Below the pieces are notes generated by a model. That model was not told the origin of the DNA. It searched no databases and worked only from the letters and a program-made list of their open reading frames with translations. Source: Paramecium tetraurelia (lineage: Eukaryota). Taken from it: DNA of 62,700 bases. The stretch is taken from positions 620,001 to 682,700 of the forward strand of contig CT867997.1 in the NCBI GenBank assembly GCA_000165425.1. Direction: 5' to 3'. The translations under genes and the position numbers were made by a program. This document shows, one piece after another, positions 49,772 to 62,700 of this stretch (positions within the stretch are counted from its first letter, which is position 1; every line of letters begins with the position of its first letter).

Positions 49772-51056
49772 TCATTCTTCAGTCCACCTTAATCTCCTTC
49801 CCTAATCCCATACTCCAAATTTGGTCTTCCCATCTGGTAATATGTACTTTCCTTTTCCATGTTGTTTCCCATCATGCCATTCTCCAACATACTGTCTCCC
49901 ATCTGGCCACTTATATTTCCCAACTCCTTGCTTTTTGTCATCCACATAAGAACCATGATATATTCTCCCATCAGCCCATTAATATACACCTTCTCCATGC
50001 ATTTTATTATTCTGCCATGAACCTTTGTAAATTCTCCCATCTGACCAATAATATTCTCCCTAATGAAATCAACATCACTATCATTACATATCCATTTATC
50101 TTATTCTCAAACCAATCTCCTTCAAAATAACTCCCATCTGGCCACATATACTTTCCCTTCCCTTATTTCTTGCCCTCAAAGTAATCTCCTTTATAACTAG
50201 ACAAATCAGACCCTACTTTTCTAAATTTAGATCTTACATTTCTCCTCTCCCTTCCCATGTTATTAATCATTACGCCAATATCCTTCATATACAGCTCCAT
50301 TATTTTGTCTATACACTCCATAACCATTAGCTCTATCATCTGCCCATTCTCCAATATAGGAATCCCCATCCACGTGATAGAAACTGCCCTTTCCACATGC
50401 TTTATTATCTACCCACTCTCCATCATATCTTGCTCCATCAGGCCATATCTATACGCCTTTGCCATCCCTTTTATTACCTACCCATTCTCCTTCATAAGTT
50501 GCACCACTCTTAAATACAAATAGAGGTCGCTTCTCCCTAGATTAAATATTATTCGCATTATTGACTATTATTTTAATAAATTCTAATACTGTTTCCGAAT
50601 TCTAATGAATTAAAGTATTTCTTTTTATCCTTACTGGCTACTGTAGCTTAATCATTTTATTATTATTATTATTGCTGCTTGTCGTTCCCCTTTTAGGACT
50701 CTGATAATGATTTCTTGACTTCCTTGTAACTTTCTCTGGCTTTATGAGCTTTCCAATTTTTTTATATCACAATCGCCTTGTCGTTTAGCTTATTCTGTTG
50801 ATTTTTTTCTTTCTCTTGATCGTCTGAAAATACCGAAAACTTCGTGTTCTTTTATTCTTTAGGAGTACACTTTGTCTACTTTAAATCATTCTTTCAATAA
50901 TTTCAATTTAATTACACCATCGATTAAACTGTTCGATGATTGTTGCGAAAAGGATGATGCTTTATGACTATCTGACTTTTTAGTCACCTCTACTTCGTTA
51001 TTTAATTCCATTTTATCTTTTTAACATTAATTGCAATTTGAACAATTTGCTCCCAT
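49772..51056 (-). CDS. MORN-repeat protein with IQ-like motif
   Basis: MGANCSNC N-terminus, [13 protein letters not shown], and about 9 YxGxWxxxxxxGxG repeats. Confidence 0.92.
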
Positions 51057-51128
51057 TCTAATTTAACTACTTATAATATAATATTGTAATTTTATAAATA
51101 TGAAATGGTTACACAATAATATTAAAAA

Positions 51129-52884
51129 TCACTATTATACTTGTTTTGTCAATAACTCTATATCTAAATCAGTCTTGCTCATGTCAATCCTATTGCGATT
51201 CCTATGAAATACGTTAACAATTTAATTACTCTAAATAAATCTTAATGGCAGCAATAAATGGAGAAAAAGAGATGAACCATCCAATCAGAATAACATAAAA
51301 TGAATAATCAAGAGAATTTTTGATTTATGAGATAACTGATATTATGAGTAATACAATAACTGTGTAATGACAGAGTTTAGTTAATGAAAATTCAATAAGC
51401 CAAGGCACATGATTCCCATATTACTCTAAATCCTTCTTCAATTATTCAAATCTCTCTTTTGATCCAAAGTAAAACACTTCAAATAATACTCCCAACATAA
51501 ATGATACGTTAGTTCCAAAAGTATCCACAAAACTCAATAAATAAAATCCAACATCTGTGCAATAGATTAAACCTATCGCTCCTAATATACTGCAAACACA
51601 TAATCTAACTTATTGAACTGTCAATTTATATCCCAAAACGATCACTTCACCTAAATAAATATCCTCAATTGTTCCTGCAATTCCATCTACAAATCCAAAT
51701 TGAGTATCAATTCCCAACAATAATAATACTAAAAAGAATAAAATACACCATAAGTTTGGCATTGGCATCTAAGCTAAAATTGCGGGATATAAAACAAATG
51801 CCAAATCAGGACCAGATAACTAATTATCGTTTTCATAAATACAGGTAATTATGAAATTGGTACATTGAATTTTAAACTAACATGTCCTATATAACTGAAT
51901 ACGACCAAACCGGCTAACATTCCACACAATGCAGTTAATAATGGAATTGCAAAAGAAAAATTAGGTAAATTATCCTCCTTTTTTCTATAACTACCATATA
52001 AACACAGAATAGCTTGTCCAACTGACATTTAAAAGATAACCTAATTAGCAGCATCTACCCAAACTGAAGGATTAAATAGTTTCACAAAGTCTGGTTTAAA
52101 TAAATAATAAATTCCCTCGCTTGAACCCTCCAACATTAAGCCTCTTATTAATAAAATCACTAATAAAAAATAAGGCGAAGTGGCTGTTACTATCGCTACC
52201 TTTCCTGAAGTCTCAACGCCTTCTCTAATACTGTAACAATCAATATATACTTTATACAAAAGTAAACTATTATTAAAGAAACTATGTATGCTATAAACAG
52301 ACTCCAAATAATATGATCTATTGTATTTTATTTGAATTACTTATATCAGTAATTGAAGTGGACATCTAAACTATAGAATCATAGAAGTAATCTCTAGAAA
52401 ATGGTGTATTCTATTCAACTATACTCTCTAACCATGGAATTGGGTACTTAAATGACTCCCACAAATATCTCAAAGAATATGCCATTATTAAATTCTACAA
52501 TTATTGCTTAATTTTTACATAATAAGTAGATATGTATGCGCAAATTACTATTCCAACATATCCAAATCCTCTTAACTTTGGTTTTTCTAAGTCTAACAAA
52601 TGTGCCATTCCAATCCCTTTGCATTACCCCAAACCAACTTCTAAAAAAAATAATGGAATAGCTAAAGTAAAAACCAAAATAAAGTATGGTATTAAGAATG
52701 TCCCCCCTCCATTTTTAAATACAACTAAACAATATTTTATAATCAATTTTATACGATATGGAAATCTCCAAACACTTCCAAAACCAGCTGCAAATCCTAA
52801 GGATGTAAGCATAAATGTCCATGAGCTCGAGAATTTCATTCTAACTTCCTAATATCCTTCTAAGCTTTGGCTAGATGGTTACAT
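51129..52884 (-). CDS. SLC6/NSS sodium:neurotransmitter symporter-family transporter
   Basis: GFAAGFGSVWRFPY, KNGGGTFLIPY, PLFFLEVGLGQ, VWVDAANQVIFQMS, GPDLAFVLYP and LLGIDTQFG. Confidence 0.93.
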
Positions 52885-54479
52885 TAATTTAAGTAATTAT
52901 ATTATTATAATGGATTTTTTCTAAATGAAAATTTCTTGATTTTAATTATTTTATTAAATTTGTGTTTTTAAGGGTGTTCCATAATATAATTATAATAAGA
53001 AGTTATCAATTTTTATATAAGGCAAAAAATATTGCATTATTATGATATATGATTGATTTGCATTATTCAAGAAATTAACTTTTGTAGCAGATATTTAGAT
53101 AATGTTCTTTAGAATTTTACAAATTATTAATTTAACAAAATTAACTTAAATTAAATTTCTAATACAATTGTTGGAGGAGAATTTGCATTGGATAGAAAAA
53201 TTTAATAAAATTAATCCAGAGAGTTATTTGTCTAATATCAAATGATAAATAAAAAAGAGTTGAAAATTTTATAATCTCATTTTAAAAACATAAACTTAAT
53301 TTAGCTATCCTATAATTTAGAGTAAAATGGAAATACTTAGTATTTAATCTAGTATATCGAAAATTAAATAAATAATCAATAAGTATAAGAGAATTATACA
53401 AAGTTTAGCAAAGACTAAGGATAGTAAATAATAATATATAAGATCTTAGTGATCAGCTAAGAGAAATCTTATTAATAATTCTCATTTATTTCATTAAGCA
53501 AACTCCAAAGTGTATCACAAACCTATCAAATTAATACGAAGGAGGTGCAAAAATGATAATATATTTTTATGAAAATTGAAATAATTTATTATGACTATAT
53601 TTCTTGAATCTAGTTTAATTATTTAATCACTCTGATTATTATTATTTATGGAAGTCTTATGCTAACTGGAAATTAAATATAAAATTTACATTTTAAAATA
53701 AATTGTTTAATTCTTCTAAAGATTCTAAAAAATCATTAGCATATTTCTCCTACTCAGAGATGACTTAAATAGGTTAAGTAATGGAATCGAAATTGTTAGA
53801 ATTGTTTTTATTTTACTCCTTTCTGATGAAACAAATTCCCATCCTTATTTATTATATATTTAATAAAATTAATATTGTTAAACCATTTATTTTTTTATTA
53901 ACCGCAAATTATCTTATTATTGATCAATTAGTATCAATCAAAAAGGAATAGATATCTAACCATTTACAAAAGCGCCTCTCAAATATATATTACGCATTTT
54001 ATGCAATTTATGATATAGAACTATTATGAGATCAAAATTTATTCCTATCAATATTAAAATTATTAAGCAAAACATTTCGTTACTGGATTAGGCTAATATA
54101 AAATTTTATACCTTTATTAAACCCCAATCGCGAAATTTTATCATTAAATAGATATTATAAATTGTAATTTCTGTTTCTTAATCCAAATTGTCTTATTGCC
54201 TTTTAAATTTATGTTTATTTATTCTTTATGTGATCATATTATTTGTATTTTTATTTATTTCTCCTTACTTTATTTAGTATCTCATAATATAAGTTTTTAA
54301 AATAAATTTGTTTCTGATATTAAAAAGAAGGAAAAATGAGAAAATATGTATGCTGATTGATTGATTTTTCAATTTAATCTCATCTAATATAATTATATTA
54401 ATCTTTAATAATTCTTATTCAAAATTTCTAGTAATAATTTATGTAGAGTTCAAAAGCAAAAGAAACTCATAATATAATC

Positions 54480-57400
54480 ATGCAATAATGTAAATGTATT
54501 TCATGATGATTAGATGATGGAATTGATGAAATTATTTAATTAAATTCATAGACCTAGGAAAAAATTTAAAATTAGAGTGAGGCTGAAAATTTTTCAAAAA
54601 TAAAAGATGGGCTTGATGAATTTTTAGAACTTGTTTGTGATAATATATTATAAAATGAGGAAGAAATAAATGATTATCTGAATGATAATATACTTATAAA
54701 TTTGAATGCCTAAGATAAAAGGAAGGCAATATAATATTTGTTTGGTTTTAAGTAGGGTAATACCAAACTCGACTTTTTAAATAACATCTTGGATTAAAAT
54801 TGCGAAGAACAATTTAATAAATCACCTGAATTAAATGAAAATTAATATTATTTAGATGCTCGTAAAAATAAAGAATACAGTAATATATTAAATAAACTTA
54901 CTAATGACAAATTCATCTTAGTCAATAAGATTCCATCTTAGATAGCCTCTAGTAAGGACTTTCTTGAGAGAATATTAAATACTCAACTCTAAAAAGTACA
55001 TCTACTATTTGATTATAATGAATATTAGTAAGGATTAAAATAACTAACTTAAATTGAACTTATAAACATTCTTTCATAATTTATCGATGATACTGATGAA
55101 AAGTTACAATAAATTATTGGATCTATTTCCATACGTTAATGCTCTTAATTTTAGACCTATAATGATTGGATCTAAGAATAAGAATAAAATCTATTTACAA
55201 CTTAATAAAATTAGAAATTCTTAAATGAACTTCTTTGTTTAGATCTAATTAAAATATAGAAAGACTTAATTACATTCATATCATAATAAATTGGAAAACT
55301 TAATCATAGTGATCTAAATAAAAAAAAAAATTAATAATAAGGGGTATTAAGAATTTTTTAAGAAACCCTAAAGATGTAAATTTGTTGTAATTTGTCACTA
55401 GATTAAATATATTTTGCAATAACTTTTTATTTTTGGATAAAGCATCATAATAAGATTGTTAAATTTCATTAAGAAATCTCAAAACCATTAGGATAAGTTA
55501 CAGATAAAAAAAAGGAAAATGTTCTTCAAACGAAATTAAAATAGTATAAAAAAGAAAATAAAGAATAAGATTCCATTCATAATTTCTTGATGGATAAAAT
55601 CATTTTTTACAAATCTGATCAATAATAATTTTTAAAGCCAAATTAACAAGAAAGAAATTCAAATGATTATTAAGTCTAAAATATTTCAAACTACTTTTCA
55701 AAAATATTTAATTAATGCTTTAATATGGATTCGAAAATGGCTGATGGAATGGATTAACAATCCAATTTCATTCAATTTTTGAATCAACTTCAAGAGTTTC
55801 ATTTTTACCAAACTTAGATTTGATGAAAATAATTAAGGCTTAAAGAATTTTATTTTAAATACTTTGGATTAACTCTCAAAAATGATAGTATTTTTGAAAT
55901 TTTAAAATATATTCCTAATTCGGAATCAGAATTAATTATTTTTTTGCATATGCTTTAAGATTTAAATAAGAGAATGGATTATATATTATATTATTTAATA
56001 CTAGATATTTTGGAACTTATCATAATGAAAGATACCACTAAATGTTAGAATGTCAAAATTTTTAGAGATTAATTTGAAGATTTATAATCATTCCTATGTA
56101 TTGAGAATTGTATCAAACTTAAATCTATTATTTTTAAAAATTCTCTATTTAATTTAGATGAATGTACCAATATATTAAAGGAAATTTTTAATGAAGTGTA
56201 TATCAAATTTAAAGAGGGTTCGTCAGAAAAATAAAGGAATTTTTAGTTTTTAGTAACTCTTGGTGGAAAAGATTATGGGAATCAATTTTTGATGTTATTT
56301 CATTGCTTTAAAAATAAGGATATCCAAAACTAAATTATTAATATTGTAATCAGAATTTAATTTTTCAAGAAAAATAGAAATTTAGATATGTTTAAATAAT
56401 GTTGTAATGACCTTTTTATGTTAGATGAGGGAATTTATGATAAATGTTATGAATAATTTAATGATATTACTGAATTTTAAATTACACCTTAATTCTTTCA
56501 ACATAAGAAAATACATGGAAGCTATCCTACTAAAATCAATATATCAATTGAATAATTTATTCTATCTAGAACTGAATAGAAAAAAAACAATTAAATAATA
56601 AAATGGGTATCTAATTTAAATAACTGTGAATATTTTTTGTCTCTTCTTCCTTTTTTATTTGATATTATTAAAAGAGGAGAATCAATTGAGCCTTTGCTTG
56701 ATTAAGTCAATAAAAATACAGGTATCGAAAACATAGAATTTATGAATTTCAAAGTTATCTTTTAAATTTTATATAATAATTCCGATAAATAGCTGCAAAT
56801 CCTACTATTAAAAAACTTATCCTATAATTATCCTATTCCCTTTGTTTATTAAAATCCCAATTTAGATAATATCCAAGTGGAAGCAGATTTATATTTGATT
56901 AATCCTAATATTTATTTCTTATTATAAAAACAATACAGCATTATTAACGTTTCTTTCAGTAAATTGTAAACTTAAATTGGTAAGACTTAATTAATTAATA
57001 GCGTATTTTATCGAAAAGATAAATTTAATATTTAAGATACTAATAATTTAAATAGAAATACTATCGATCTGATGCTGGATAAGGAATTCAATGGATCTAG
57101 AAATTTACTAATTGCTGACGCTCATGGGTATATTCCATAAAGCTTGTTGTTGAAAATTTTGCCATTATTTAGTTTTTGGATAATATAGATGGACACTGAG
57201 GAAGAATTAAAAGAGAATCTTGAATAAATTAAAAACTTAAATAAAAAATTCAAAATAATAAATCATAAGATTCTATTTATTGTTAGAAACTCAAAAAGTA
57301 AATAAATTGACTAATCTCTCCAAGAAGAATTAAACAAAAATTATATCTAACTCTACTAAATTCAAAATTTATCTTCAAAAGGTATAAACAATTAGTTGAT

Positions 57401-60400
57401 TTATTAACAAATTAAGCTTTTGCAGGAATAAATTTTTAATTAGATTGCGAATCATGAGGAATTCAAGCCATTTAATTAAGAAAATTTTATTTAGATCTTA
57501 AGAACTGAGGACCAAGAAGAATTATAAAAGTTAAATATTTTATTATAAGAAATCAAAGATGAAGCAGAAATATATTTTAATGATACAAAAGGATTTTACA
57601 ACTCAAAAGCATTTCCTTTAAGATATTTTGATAAAATTATAAAAGAATTGCAGGAAGAGGAATCACAACTTTTTGAAGTCTCACAATTTTGTTTAACATA
57701 GGAAATACATCAACTTTAGTAAAAAATTCAAAATTATTAAAATTTTTTAAAATAACAAAATCCAAGTAAGCTATTAAAATTATTTAAATAATTAATTTGT
57801 TTTGAAAATTATAGTTCATACATTACTTTAATCTAAGTTATCTCTGATTTGACTAGAGAATCTACTTAAAAATTATAGATAATAAATTCTGATTTATTAG
57901 ATAAACTTCAAGTTTAAAAATTAGAAAATAGAGAAGATAAAGAAGGGCTAAAAAAATTAAAATAATATTTTGAAGAATGTGAAAAAGAACTTTAATCTAA
58001 AAGTCTTAATATTGATATATTTTGGAGAGAACATATCAAGCATTGTTTTTAAATAAATTAATGCCAAGAAGTCGCAGATTAAATAGTAAAATTATTAATG
58101 AAAGGTGAAGCATTTGAACTTTTAGATGGAGAATAATTAATAATGAATATTGGTTTTTTTGAACTTATAGTAAAATGTTTTGAAAAAATAAGTAAAAATA
58201 ATAAAATTCTTGTTATTGGAATTTTGGGACCTTAAAGCTCAGGCAAATCTACGATCTTAAACAAGATTTTTGGATGCCATTTTTTCTCGAGCGTAGGAAA
58301 ATCAACTAAAGGGATATACTTTCAAATGATATAAGTTCAGAAAAATTCAATATTTGAAAATTAGTTTGATTTTATTTTAATATTAGATACAGAAGGATTA
58401 TAGAGTCCAAATTAAAAAGATCCACTATTCGATAAAAGGATTTCCCTATTTATATTTGCTATCTGTGATATTATTTTAATTAATGTGAAGGGTGAGATTA
58501 ATTCTTAATTTAAAAATCTTGTTGAAATATGTATTTATTCTTTGGCTTAAATTTAAAATGCATTATCAAATACAAAATAAATTAGTTGGTGTTTTAACCA
58601 AAATATTGATACTTCAAATAAATCGCCATTTATTGAACAATTAACTTAATTAACAAAATAATTATTCGATGATAACGGGTAATTTGGAAAAAATAAAGAT
58701 AAATAATAGGATATCTTAGAATTAATAGAAATTAAAAAGGAAAATATCCAAATTTTAAGTACTACAACAACAATGGAAACCTGGAATATCGAAGGATTAC
58801 AATAATTTTGGACATAACTTATTCCAAATGAATCATATTCTAAAGATGCTTACAAATATGGTATATAATTGATACACAATTATTTTGAAAAGTGCCAAAA
58901 AAAATAGTAAAGTTTTTGTGGATAACTACTAGAAAATTTTTTTTTAAATTCATATAAAATGTGGGAAACTATTTCAAAATTACCAGATCTATTGGAATTT
59001 TCAGAATTGATTTCATTATAATAAAACTAACTAATTTCAAAATTTTATTATCAACTTTGGAATGAAAATAAATTAACATTCAAATCTTAAATATCAACCC
59101 TAATAAAACAGAAAATCGAATAGCTTAATTTTGATTTAAATTTCAAGCATTTATAAGAAATTTAATAGGAATTAGAATTAAAGTTATCGATAGAATGCAA
59201 AATAATAAATAAAAAGATTGAAGAAAAGCTAAATTAATTCAAAGAGGAAAAAAACATTTAAAAAAACATATATTAAAAATTTATAATTAAATTATAAAAT
59301 GAAATTCATAACCTTTAAACAGAATGTAATTTTTTTATAAATGAGTAAATTAAAAATTAAGAAATCGAATATTAAATACGTCGAGGTTTTGGTGAAATTA
59401 ATAAGTACATCAATTAATTAAGTCCAGAAATTAGAACCTAATTACAAAATGATGAAACATTATTGTAAAATTAATTCAATATCATTTGGGAAAAAATAAA
59501 AATTTAATAATTATAGTAAAGAAAAGTCAAATTTGATGAAATTTAAACTGCATCTCTTAAATAAATCAAAAGCTATTTTTAGGAATATTAGTTAACTTTT
59601 CACAAAGATAGTAACTTTTAAAGTTTTTTTCATGAAAAAATAAATAAAATTGATCAGAAAGAAGAAGAAAAAGACAAAATTTTTTTGTAATACTAAGAAA
59701 TACTAATGCAAAATTAATTTACAAAATTGCCAAAAGAGGACTTCTATCATATAAATTTTGAAATACTGGGCTTTGATTAAAAAATTGAAAAGTCTTAAGG
59801 CTCGTTCTTATCTTTAGATAAACTATTTTAAGTAAATTATAATATAAATTATGTACTTAATAGAGAACTAAAACAATATTTTTAAAATTATTTTTAAGAA
59901 GATCTTTAAAAAGCTAAAAAGCTTGAAAAGATTTAGGATTTATTGCAAATCCTTGACTTATTTTAAGTGGGGTATGATTAAATTAGCAAAAATAAAATCC
60001 TTTAATTATTTAACAAAGACTAAAAAGAATATTAAAATTCTTGTTCCTAATTTACATAAACATTTAAGTTTAATGATTTAGATCGATAACGTAAATTTTA
60101 AAAATTGGATCTAAATTTATTAGAAAAATTGAAAAAATCAAAATTAAAATTTTATTAAAGAAAAATCTAGGATACAGAAATAAATGATTTCAGAAAAGAA
60201 AATATAATTATATCGTAAGCATGTGATAATGTAGTAAGTAAAGAATTTAGCAGCAAATATTGCGTTTATATTAGCAATCCTCAAAAATACCGTTTTGCTG
60301 AGTCTTTTCAAGTAGAGTTTAATTAAATGGTTAATAAAAATCGAATATGGAATAAAATTTATTCTGAGATATATGATAAAATAAAAACCTCAATATTGGA

Positions 60401-62440
60401 ATTAGCAGAGAATACAGAAATTATCTCAAAAGACATAATTCAAGGAGTGATGCAATAAATATGCGATTTTAGTGAAAATCGTTACAAACCGTAATTTTCT
60501 TTATATGGCCTTTAATTATCTGATATGGGATAAAGATGCATCTATTATTACAGTTTGCACATAATTTGGAGATTTTATTGTTTAAAGATTTGGAAAAAGT
60601 TTGAAGAAAATTAAAAGTTAGTTGAGAATAGCAAGAATGATTAATGGGAATCTTTCAAACTTGAGATACATTAGCATAAATTTAAATTAAGCATGTAAAA
60701 AGGTAAATTGCTTGCTAATTATTTGATTGAAAAGTCTCAATAGATTTTTTATTTAGATAAGAGAATTGAAATTGAAGATTTTCTTAAGAGAGAGCTAAAA
60801 AAAAATGAAAATTTAGTAAAGTACTTGGATGATAAAATAATTACAAAAAGGTAAAAAATTGAACTATTAAATGAGATGACAGATTAGGAATAAGTTATGG
60901 AATATCTGACAAATTAATTGAACTTTATTTAATCATATGTAGAAAAATATATAAAGCATATAACAAAATAAATTTAATTACAATACTAAGAATCATTTAA
61001 TCAAGAATTAAGAATTATTTTTCACAGAGTAGAGACAAATGCTAAAAAATTATTAAAAAGCCTTCCCTATTATCCAAGTGTTGAAAACTATTTTGAGAAT
61101 TCTATTAAATCTAAATTCTATAAAATTAAAGATGAAGATTAAAAGAAAAAACAAGAAAACATTCTTGAAATCAAATTATTTAATTTAGTTTTTCAGTACC
61201 TTTTGGAATATGAATAAAAATAGGAAGAAATCGAAGAAATTGATGATTAATACAAAGATTGCTTTATTCATAACTATAAGCGAAAATAAAATATATTAAT
61301 AAACTAGAGGAATGAAATGGATAACTAAATAAATCAAATTCAACCATTTTTATAATCCTTACTTGATAACCTATAATTAGTCAGTTCAATTAACTTTGAC
61401 CTAACTTAACTGCTCATTTAAGAAAGCTTGAACTCATTAAAATTGGCTATGATTGGATGTACTCATTGTTGTCCAATGTGTAATCGTAAATGTGATTCCG
61501 AACCTGAATTTCTCCCTCATTCATGTTAAAATGGTCATTACTTAAGAGGTATTTCTTTATTAAATCTCAGGGATGAATGGTATACTGTTAGGAAATAAGC
61601 CATAATTACAGAGTTGCGAAGAAATAAAAGATGATTAAATCATTGATATCCTTGAAACTAAAAAGCAGATGAAATGGAAAGAAATTAAGAAAATATATCA
61701 AAAATGGAATTTTGCAAGCGTAAGTGTAAATACAAAAATACTTAAGGAAAATAAATTGAAATTGATCAAAATTTGGAATGATGGAATTGGAAACTTAATA
61801 TGCACAAAATTAAGTTAAACATTTAATACCAAAATTTATTATAATACAAGGGAACAATAGGAAATCTTCTATCTTTTTATACTTGATGACTCCTTTTCAA
61901 TGGAAGGAAAAAAAGGAGATGAAATGATGGAAAGCTTAAGATAATAACTCAAATTTCTGAAATCAAATAAATATGCTAAAGTGAGTGTAATTTCATTCAA
62001 TTATAAAGCCTCATTGTAAATAGAATTTAAAAAGCCAAAAGCAAAATTGATTAAATAAATTACGTTAGTAGGAGGAATTACAAATTTTGACCCACCTCTC
62101 AAATTATGTTTAGATTAAATACTAAAATATGAAAAAAAAATTGATTAGTAAAAATTTATATAAACCTAGAGCATATATCCTCCTTTATTCTGATGGGGAA
62201 GGTTCATATCCTCAATAGAGTTTAGCTGAATATATAACATTAAGTTAAGAATTAAGAAATAAAATATCATTTCTGATTTGTACAGCTGGGAGTAAACCTC
62301 AAACTCTACTTAAAATGATTTAGCAATTAACACTTGCATTTCACAAGGTAGAATTGAAGAAAAACATTTAAAGCTCAGATCTGAGTAAATGTTGGAATGA
62401 AATATTAATTAAAACTTGCTAGATGACCACAACTGAATGA
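54480..62440 (+). CDS. very large GTPase (VLIG/GVIN/URGCP-type G domain) with C-terminal vWA domain, about 2600 aa
   Basis: GEAFELLDGE, IGILGPQSSGKSTILN, SVGKSTKG, LDTEGLQS, FDKRISLF, GCTHCCPMCNRKC and the vWA motifs FILDDSFSM/GGITNF/YSDGEG. One frame is kept from 54516 to 61548 apart from TGA-TGA at 55821-55826. Confidence 0.85.
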
Positions 62441-62700
62441 AAAAATTATATTAAACATAAAATTCTGTGTCATTTTACCATTTTGAAATTTCTATGATAA
62501 TATTTTTCAAATTCATAAATGAAGAATCATTTTTAACAGATCAGCAAATTTTCATAAATCATTAATATTTTATAGTCAGAATATTAAATATAGAATTCGA
62601 AATTTCTCTACCAAAAATTAAACATTATCATAGCAATTAATTAACAATCTATTATTTTCTTTTGGAAGCCCTCCATGGGATTGGTGTTGATTACCCATGC

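Follow-up and report, generated by a model that had tools for sequence, protein, structure and literature searches.

A GVIN/VLIG-family GTPase of Paramecium tetraurelia with a predicted von Willebrand factor A domain at its C-terminus

A stretch of 62,700 nucleotides (nt) of Paramecium tetraurelia macronuclear DNA (assembly GCA_000165425.1, contig CT867997.1, positions 620,001 to 682,700; from here on, the window), with 21-34% GC and read with the ciliate code, holds near its end a gene whose product is assigned by sequence to the GVIN/VLIG family of GTPases, outside the animal GVIN1/URGCP branch. What is new is the von Willebrand factor A (vWA) domain that caps this family member; its individual parts are already labelled in databases. 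The features of the gene are the following, in window coordinates:

54441..62440, forward strand: whole gene, 2642 amino acids (aa) once spliced and freed of three extra bases, as deduced from the P. octaurelia and P. pentaurelia alignment and public reads
54441..56702, forward strand: N-terminal region, aa 1-745, with weakly similar paralogues (22-29% identity across long stretches)
54490..54513, forward strand: intron 1, 24 nt, GT..AG, containing two in-frame stops; skipped in the orthologue alignment, splicing deduced by homology
55813..55878, forward strand: patch with single extra bases at 55813, 55853 and 55878, each in a homopolymer run, within 66 nt
56703..57497, forward strand: first G domain (LG1), aa ~746-1010, URGCP-like, with GK[TS] at 56979, DxHG at 57117 and a G4-like RN
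58098..58997, forward strand: VLIG-type G domain (LG2), with G1 GPQSSGKS at 58227-58250, G2 KSTKG at 58299-58313, G3 DTEG at 58386-58397 and NQN at the G4 position, 58596-58604
58998..61442, forward strand: stalk, aa 1511-2325, the first ~100 aa modelled as helical and the remainder presumably so
61443..61839, forward strand: Cys/His domain (C2331, C2335, C2338, C2342, H2351, C2353, H2357, C2376), with intron 2 inside
61549..61570, forward strand: intron 2, 22 nt, GT..AG, within the Cys/His domain, from sequence and orthologue alignment
61852..62437, forward strand: vWA domain with a complete predicted metal ion-dependent adhesion site (MIDAS; D2466, S2468, S2470, T2531, D2561) and intron 3 inside
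62148..62169, forward strand: intron 3, 22 nt, GT..AG, within the vWA domain, from sequence and orthologue alignment

The assignment is carried in the first place by LG2, which shows the match to the Pfam URGCP_GTPase model (PF25683) that marks GVIN/VLIG proteins (E 6e-33, 114.6 bits, with a cut-off of 55), together with further matches to RHD3_GTPase and MMR_HSR1. Among solved structures, Sey1 comes nearest by sequence (E 3.5e-10), followed by GBP2 and GBP1. An AlphaFold2 model of LG1, linker and LG2 (867 aa, 44 sequences) was obtained with a predicted local distance difference test (pLDDT) of 83.6 and a predicted template modelling score of 0.78, and the fold search done with it matched RNF112, Sey1, GBPs, atlastins and SMG9. 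On LG2, Z was 22.9 for Sey1, 21.5 for GBP1 (2b8w, root-mean-square deviation (rmsd) 4.0, 258 residues aligned), 20.3 for SMG9 and 14.9 for SMG8. The fold matches bear on LG2 and the vWA domain, which filled the lists. The NQN at the G4 position is present in all 37 Paramecium rows. A previous examination of this DNA, made from the letters alone and referred to here as the sequence-only reading, had proposed a VLIG-type G domain, which is borne out by the Pfam match and by a fold like that of Sey1 and GBP1 (Z 21-23).

As in other GVIN/VLIG members, a URGCP-type G domain lies upstream of the presumed active one. In the AlphaFold2 model LG1 has a P-loop topology and a strand-helix order of the G-domain type (pLDDT mostly 77-93), and its best matches in ESM Atlas were URGCP (PF25496) clusters (0.96 with 205 features in common, and 0.95 with 199). 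The Pfam PF25496 hidden Markov model (HMM) gave no match to LG1, the hhalign alignment with animal LG1 was colinear but weak (E 0.023, probability 2%), and the LG1 profile detected LG2 of the same protein with an E of 0.0003. LG1 lacks the first P-loop glycine. Its GK[TS] is kept in all 34 Paramecium rows with residues at that place, the Asp of DxHG is invariant, and G4 consists of Arg followed by Asn or Asp, the Arg being present in 33 of 34 rows; RD at G4 is given as a mark of the atlastin/Sey1/GBP class in the available part of PMC4576867. Because these residues are conserved across Paramecium, LG1 appears to be a conserved atypical site rather than a simply decayed one, so that of the 'degenerate first P-loop region' of the sequence-only reading the G domain preceding a second one stands, while mere decay does not. 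A Pfam scan of the N-terminal region yielded no match, and with the first 720 aa of the P. octaurelia orthologue as query three orthologues alone were recovered among 5670 candidates.

All eight Cys/His ligands occur without exception in the 32 Paramecium rows that have residues there, and probably form two zinc sites. The motif CxxxCPxCxxxC is common to mammal, fish and mollusc GVINs, and an HMM built from the ciliate Cys/His domains matches fish, frog and coral GVINs (E 1e-06 to 5e-05), including two of the nine printed animal GVIN1-branch rows from the first search and further ones. Homology with the GVIN C-terminal domain, another mark of the family, is thus indicated by sequence. Next to it, the vWA domain matches Pfam VWA_2 with an E of 3e-05 on its first exon alone and of 1e-06, above the cut-off, on the full orthologue. 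A predicted model of the C-terminal 330 aa (pLDDT 80.9, mostly >90 in the vWA domain and of lower confidence in the Cys/His part) gave a vWA fold match with a Z of 19.3 and an rmsd of 2.4-2.6, an ArnAB/Sec23-24-like vWA domain being among those tied for best. Having both this fold and the DxSxS, T and D residues, the domain is a vWA domain with a predicted MIDAS. It is present in 31 of the 37 Paramecium rows and absent in the other 6, and the MIDAS is complete in 28 of the 31.

The domain content claimed by the sequence-only reading has therefore been recovered: the GVIN-like order with a stalk and a Cys/His cluster corresponds to two G domains, a stalk and a Cys/His domain homologous to the GVIN C-terminus, the vWA ligands are all five in place within a VWA_2 match and a vWA fold, and the fusion of GTPase and vWA is real at the level of the family, being present in 31 of the 37 Paramecium rows as well as in proteins of dinoflagellates, bdelloids and a sponge. 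Among 2905 candidates of 30-1166 aa no stand-alone protein resembling the Cys/His-vWA part was found, a weak argument against a separate form. No transmembrane segment, CaaX or Gly2 was detected in the six proteins checked; in this one the highest 19-residue hydropathy (1.84) falls within the G-domain core and the C-terminus, TCQMTTTE, carries no CaaX. The membrane-remodelling option also raised by that reading thus has neither a transmembrane segment nor a CaaX behind it.

The search with LG2 returned 133 proteins of 1049-3339 aa, and 37 of the 120 listed are from Paramecium, with at least 6 members in P. tetraurelia, 10 in P. octaurelia, 6 in P. pentaurelia, 10 in P. sonneborni and 5 in P. 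primaurelia; no Tetrahymena name occurs among the 120 matches listed, which is no evidence of absence. HMMER over 1.84 billion representatives gave 1588 matches at E <=0.001. In a G-domain tree of 65 chosen rows, built by a quick method, Paramecium forms one group with a support of 100 and several old subfamilies, and joins Amoebophrya at 99; the gene belongs to a one-to-one trio. Elsewhere in the genus there are species-specific paralogue pairs (69-74% identity), copies devoid of the C-terminal domains and MORN fusions.

A second tree was made with FastTree from 104 rows with the Cys motif after LG2, for which 7 Paramecium rows were kept and most near-identical sponge-type rows dropped; it is midpoint-rooted and its sample is biased toward the query, and the direction of change is not given by it. 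None of the 50 rows on the animal GVIN1/URGCP side has a vWA domain. On the gene's side, with 54 rows, a ciliate-type vWA is carried by 23 and a sponge-type one by 13; 17 have none (some of them perhaps truncated) and one has another tail, which Pfam reads as vWA. With both methods the gene stands opposite animal GVIN1 across a branch with a support of 98-100. The vWA fusion is also found in Amoebophrya, Symbiodinium, Adineta steineri and Didymodactylos carnosus (both bdelloids), Oopsacas minuta (a sponge) and many metagenome proteins, and judging from these rows the predicted architecture is no ciliate invention; it marks a GVIN branch shared with dinoflagellates, bdelloid rotifers and a sponge. 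Since the ciliate vWA profile matched none of 24 sponge-type domains, the cap would have been swapped or gained more than once.

Several rows of the alignments differ in their accessory domains. Two from P. primaurelia and P. pentaurelia (P0019, P0033) carry N-terminal MORN repeats and end before the Cys/His and vWA domains; they lie on short contigs and are either true fusions or merged gene models. Two metagenome rows (P0056, P0076) have a ubiquitin-like domain upstream of the VLIG G domains, the bdelloid VLIG-vWA rows (P0154, P0240, P0265) fall on the protist side, apart from animal GVIN1, and in four coral or frog GVIN-like rows of 2490-3759 aa (P0135, P0141, P0151, P0174) the G-domain module is duplicated in tandem.

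With respect to the gene model, the G-domain region is 100% identical to the P. tetraurelia public model GSPATT00005037001 (2123 aa), which starts at an internal Met at 56025 and lacks ~520 N-terminal residues because of the three apparently spurious bases at 55813-55878. The alignment with the orthologues, of 2641 aa in P. octaurelia and 2643 aa in P. pentaurelia, extends from the ATG at 54441 to the stop at 62438-62440. The reading frame that had been proposed from 54480 was right; its start was not, as the ATG lies 13 codons upstream and both orthologues align from there. The ~2600 aa estimated previously agree with the 2642 obtained, and all quoted motifs were found in one reading frame of the ciliate code where they had been placed (GKTQLIN at 56979, IADAHG at 57111, GPQSSGKS at 58227, DTEG at 58386, GCTHCCPMC at 61455, and for the vWA ligands DDSFS at 61885, the T of GITNF at 62074-62088 and the D of SDGE at 62189-62200).

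That reading did not mention a TGA TGA, at 55821-55826, in the long exon as assembled. These stops arise because three single extra bases shift the frame: across the patch the orthologues follow three successive frames of the window, and removal of the three bases restores exact register with them. The comparison covered public runs X8, X16, X17 and X24; X5-X7, marked as a possible source of the assembly, were outside it. All three bases are missing from X8 and X16 contigs, those at 55853 and 55878 from X17 contigs, which have no row for 55813, and X24 has no reads over the patch. Two substitutions, at 55524 and 55944, lie nearby. An unusual intron was considered as the cause and rejected, as there is no fitting GT..AG pair, the orthologues are colinear and the reads lack the three bases. 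The simplest explanation by a wide margin is an error of the assembly, and there is hardly any doubt that the gene is intact.

With intron 2 taken out, the family motif GHxLRGMxG reappears without a gap, and exons 3-4 are conserved; retention of this intron would end the protein at 61634, upstream of the vWA domain. No spliced junction of this gene appears in the X17 listing, taken without two rows of its table, and the splicing of all three introns is consequently deduced from homology. Run X17 has almost no cover over 50000-50847; along this gene its contigs are scattered from end to end, at a depth of 5-19, so that the gene appears to be transcribed throughout its length. About a third of the oligo-dT run X24 was read, giving 175 reads over 12.7 kb, with a sense depth of 0.6-0.7 over the last 1.3 kb of the gene and of 2-5 over upstream neighbours. 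Separate transcription of the vWA exons, which could be imagined from X24 sense reads located almost only in 61448-62700, was rejected because a neighbouring gene also falls off ~1.8 kb from its 3' end, and is also countered by the X17 contigs. Another 18 reads at 61026-61058 were assigned to a different gene on account of three mismatches and loose ends.

We propose, with about even confidence for and against, that the protein is a cytosolic, weakly expressed mechanochemical GTPase of the GVIN family acting in cell-autonomous defence, whose MIDAS would bind a target or partner. LG2 would bind GTP and dimerise head to head like Sey1, atlastin and GBP1, with which it shares the fold, and LG1 would be packed against it as a rigid neighbour, a domain with a nucleotide site whose role is structural or regulatory. 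The GTP cycle would move the stalk and lead to a coat on an intracellular bacterium or breached vacuole, by analogy with human GVIN1 on Burkholderia, while at the far end the Cys/His domain and a Mg-bound MIDAS would hold on to an acidic residue, either on the target or on a recruited co-factor, replacing a lipid anchor. Divergent N-termini and stalks might give the paralogues different specificities. This proposal is based on the GVIN1 domain order (LG1 resembling URGCP, LG2 URGCP_GTPase and the Cys/His domain the GVIN C-termini), on the lack of a transmembrane segment, CaaX or Gly2, unlike fusogens of the endoplasmic reticulum (ER), on low basal RNA, and on an expanded and divergent family with patchy spread and accessory-domain swapping across eukaryotes. 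It is also based on catalytic and ligand residues that stay fixed while the N-terminus and stalk drift: the P. octaurelia orthologue is 77.9% identical over the whole protein, 89.7% in LG2, 85.3% in LG1, 84.0% in the vWA domain, 83.7% in the Cys/His domain, 77.2% in the N-terminus and lowest, 71.5%, in the stalk and inter-G linker.

A number of facts weigh against this proposal. The divergence figures have no genome-wide baseline and no ratio of non-synonymous to synonymous changes to be read against, and the gene is kept one-to-one in three species, with eggNOG mapping the P. primaurelia gene PPRIM.AZ9-3.1.P0020078 onto it, which fits a conserved role equally well. Switch I reads GKSTKG in the gene and its two orthologues, compared with GRCTxG in 107 of 119 relatives (the R is present in 32 of 36 Paramecium rows); this deviation belongs to the subfamily and does not exclude it from the family, but the trio may differ in hydrolysis. 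Over intron 2 a single RNA-like contig is listed (X17, 61373-61815), and it is unspliced, without a gap, although the run shows the neighbouring gene with six introns spliced out. None of the six P. tetraurelia family identifiers occurs among the ~270 of 1037 differentially expressed genes available from the Caedibacter supplement (PMC5814942). The same fold class includes the non-immune Sey1, atlastin, SMG9 and RNF112, and the defence role itself stays inferred. As weaker blanks, the identifiers were not found in the available supplement parts of PMC3091696 and PMC4535620; a Megaera study, in its accessible part, names the P. primaurelia counterpart of the gene (PMC13134042).

An unlikely alternative, although the best placed of those considered, is that the protein remodels membranes as a housekeeping task, in the food vacuole, the cortex or the ER, and is brought there by the vWA domain instead of a transmembrane anchor. 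Its closest solved match both by sequence and by fold is indeed an ER fusogen, Sey1 (E 3.5e-10; Z 22.9), with which it shares a P-loop Ser where atlastin has an arginine finger, according to the part of PMC4576867 available; one-to-one orthologues across species and the ArnAB/Sec23-24-like vWA match point the same way. However, a membrane anchor is missing, basal RNA is very low, apparently canonical RHD3 genes exist separately in another ciliate group of eggNOG, and the family is patchy with fast turnover. More improbable is a non-immune regulatory scaffold in which LG1 and LG2 act as a fused, slowly hydrolysing switch of the SMG8-SMG9 kind and the vWA domain docks a partner complex. SMG9 ties with GBP1 on LG2 (Z 20), both G domains are predicted as a single rigid unit and the trio lacks the switch-I Arg-Cys, but SMG9 has no stalk of 800 aa, Cys/His domain or vWA domain, and a lineage-specific expansion would generally be unusual for a core scaffold. 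We consider it improbable to a greater degree that the same coat mechanism is directed at non-bacterial targets (competing ciliates, killer-strain toxins, viruses or mating self/non-self): the evolutionary signatures would suit any conflict system and relatives exist in a parasitic dinoflagellate and in Symbiodinium, yet the characterised family member, GVIN1, targets bacteria in the available text of bioRxiv 10.1101/2025.03.24.645074. Finally, there is very little probability that this copy has recently become a pseudogene in the strain sequenced, or yields mainly a vWA-less product through retention of intron 2. In its favour are the two in-frame stops, the exclusion of X5-X7 from the read comparison and the contig without a gap over intron 2. 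Against it, the extra bases are confined to homopolymer runs in a span of 66 nt, near which lie two substitutions, and are missing from the covering runs compared; the frame is otherwise open, and exons 3-4 are 84% identical to P. octaurelia and have an intact MIDAS.

Beyond the defence proposal for this gene, a wider and rather doubtful possibility is that the VLIG proteins with a vWA cap form a branch of GVIN-type immune GTPases that is old within eukaryotes and has so far gone undescribed, and with which protists coat intracellular bacteria by a MIDAS-dependent grip. If true, the coatomer defence reported for human GVIN1 in 2025 would be older than both interferon and the animals. The GVIN1 of animals would in that case be a derived form that lacks the cap and whose first G domain has decayed further, and the vWA of sponges would be a different one, acquired by exchange. 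UniRef names for these proteins are 'VLIG-type G domain-containing' or 'VWFA domain-containing', and the Symbiodinium copies are automatically named GVINP1. In a full-text search, with most subscription papers outside its coverage, neither GVIN/VLIG proteins of protists nor the joining of VLIG and vWA turned up as the subject of a paper, and GVIN is absent from PMC8195603. In practical terms, the public protein model is short by ~520 N-terminal residues. To our knowledge, how ciliates control bacteria that invade the cytoplasm or nuclei is poorly understood. Paramecium, with RNA interference by feeding and natural infections, makes this control and the recognition and assembly of GVIN proteins directly testable, the fused MIDAS being a specific, mutable candidate recognition site, and could serve as a single-celled model for whether bacterial coating by such GTPases is an ancient defence.

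The other genes of the window are ordinary or housekeeping ones, with a Pfam match in 16 of the 36 open frames scanned. Between 4579 and 50766 they include a NIF phosphatase, a kinesin, a protein kinase, a Rab-like GTPase, coatomer beta', an alpha-mannosidase, an EF-hand protein, a dual-specificity phosphatase, an acyl-CoA dehydrogenase and a MORN protein. A neighbour of the GTPase gene is the following:

51084-53480, reverse strand: sodium:neurotransmitter symporter family (SNF) gene, six introns confirmed in X17

Over 51522-52113 there are contigs with a likeness of ~90%, which suggests that the SNF gene has a close paralogue elsewhere. An X16 contig has 26 extra bases with TA-rich ends at 53289 in the same gene, which by these ends and their size class resemble a retained germline internal eliminated sequence.

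Among known systems, the SMG8-SMG9 pair resembles the protein in its GBP-class G domain (Z 20 for SMG9 and 14.9 for SMG8, both on LG2, which is what the comparison covers). SMG8 has an atypical G domain, and the pair thus joins a canonical and an atypical one; these are, however, two separate mRNA-surveillance proteins, without a stalk, zinc or vWA module. GBP1, GBP2 and GBP5 share with it the LG fold (Z 21.5 to 2b8w), a large G domain followed by a helical stalk and the proposed coat-forming mode. GBPs are characterised by a P-loop arginine, and GBP1, GBP2 and GBP5 by a CaaX; with its GPQSSGKS P-loop, its TCQMTTTE terminus and a length more than four times greater, the Paramecium protein is not a GBP. 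Sey1/RHD3 and atlastin have in common with it the LG2 fold and the helical bundle that follows (Z 19-23), and Sey1 also the P-loop Ser instead of an Arg finger (PMC4576867, available part). The protein does not belong to them either: it has no transmembrane hairpin or anchor, LG2 has NQN rather than RD at G4 (RN or RD being found in LG1), and a second G domain, a Cys/His domain and a vWA domain are added.

The closest likeness is to GVIN1/VLIG-1 and URGCP, with which it shares the order N-terminal region, LG1, linker, LG2, stalk and Cys/His C-terminus, the motifs GxQSSGKS at G1, DTEG at G3 and CxxxCPxCxxxC, and a size above 2400 aa. The available sections of a preprint (bioRxiv 10.1101/2025.03.24.645074) report that human GVIN1, catalogued as a pseudogene until this was shown, coats cytosolic Burkholderia thailandensis, for which O antigen and unknown co-factors are needed, and that it has an N-terminal domain, two LG domains, through which it is predicted to dimerise, and a C-terminal domain; GVIN genes are described there merely as present in most vertebrate genomes. 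In contrast with animal proteins, whose LG1 profile has the consensus SKS and NLRGD, the Paramecium protein has GK[TS] and DxHG and misses PF25496 by HMM, and unlike the inducible GTPases of vertebrates it belongs to organisms that have no interferon. The vWA cap itself separates the two branches, being found in 36 of 54 rows on the side of the Paramecium gene and in none of 50 on that of GVIN1.

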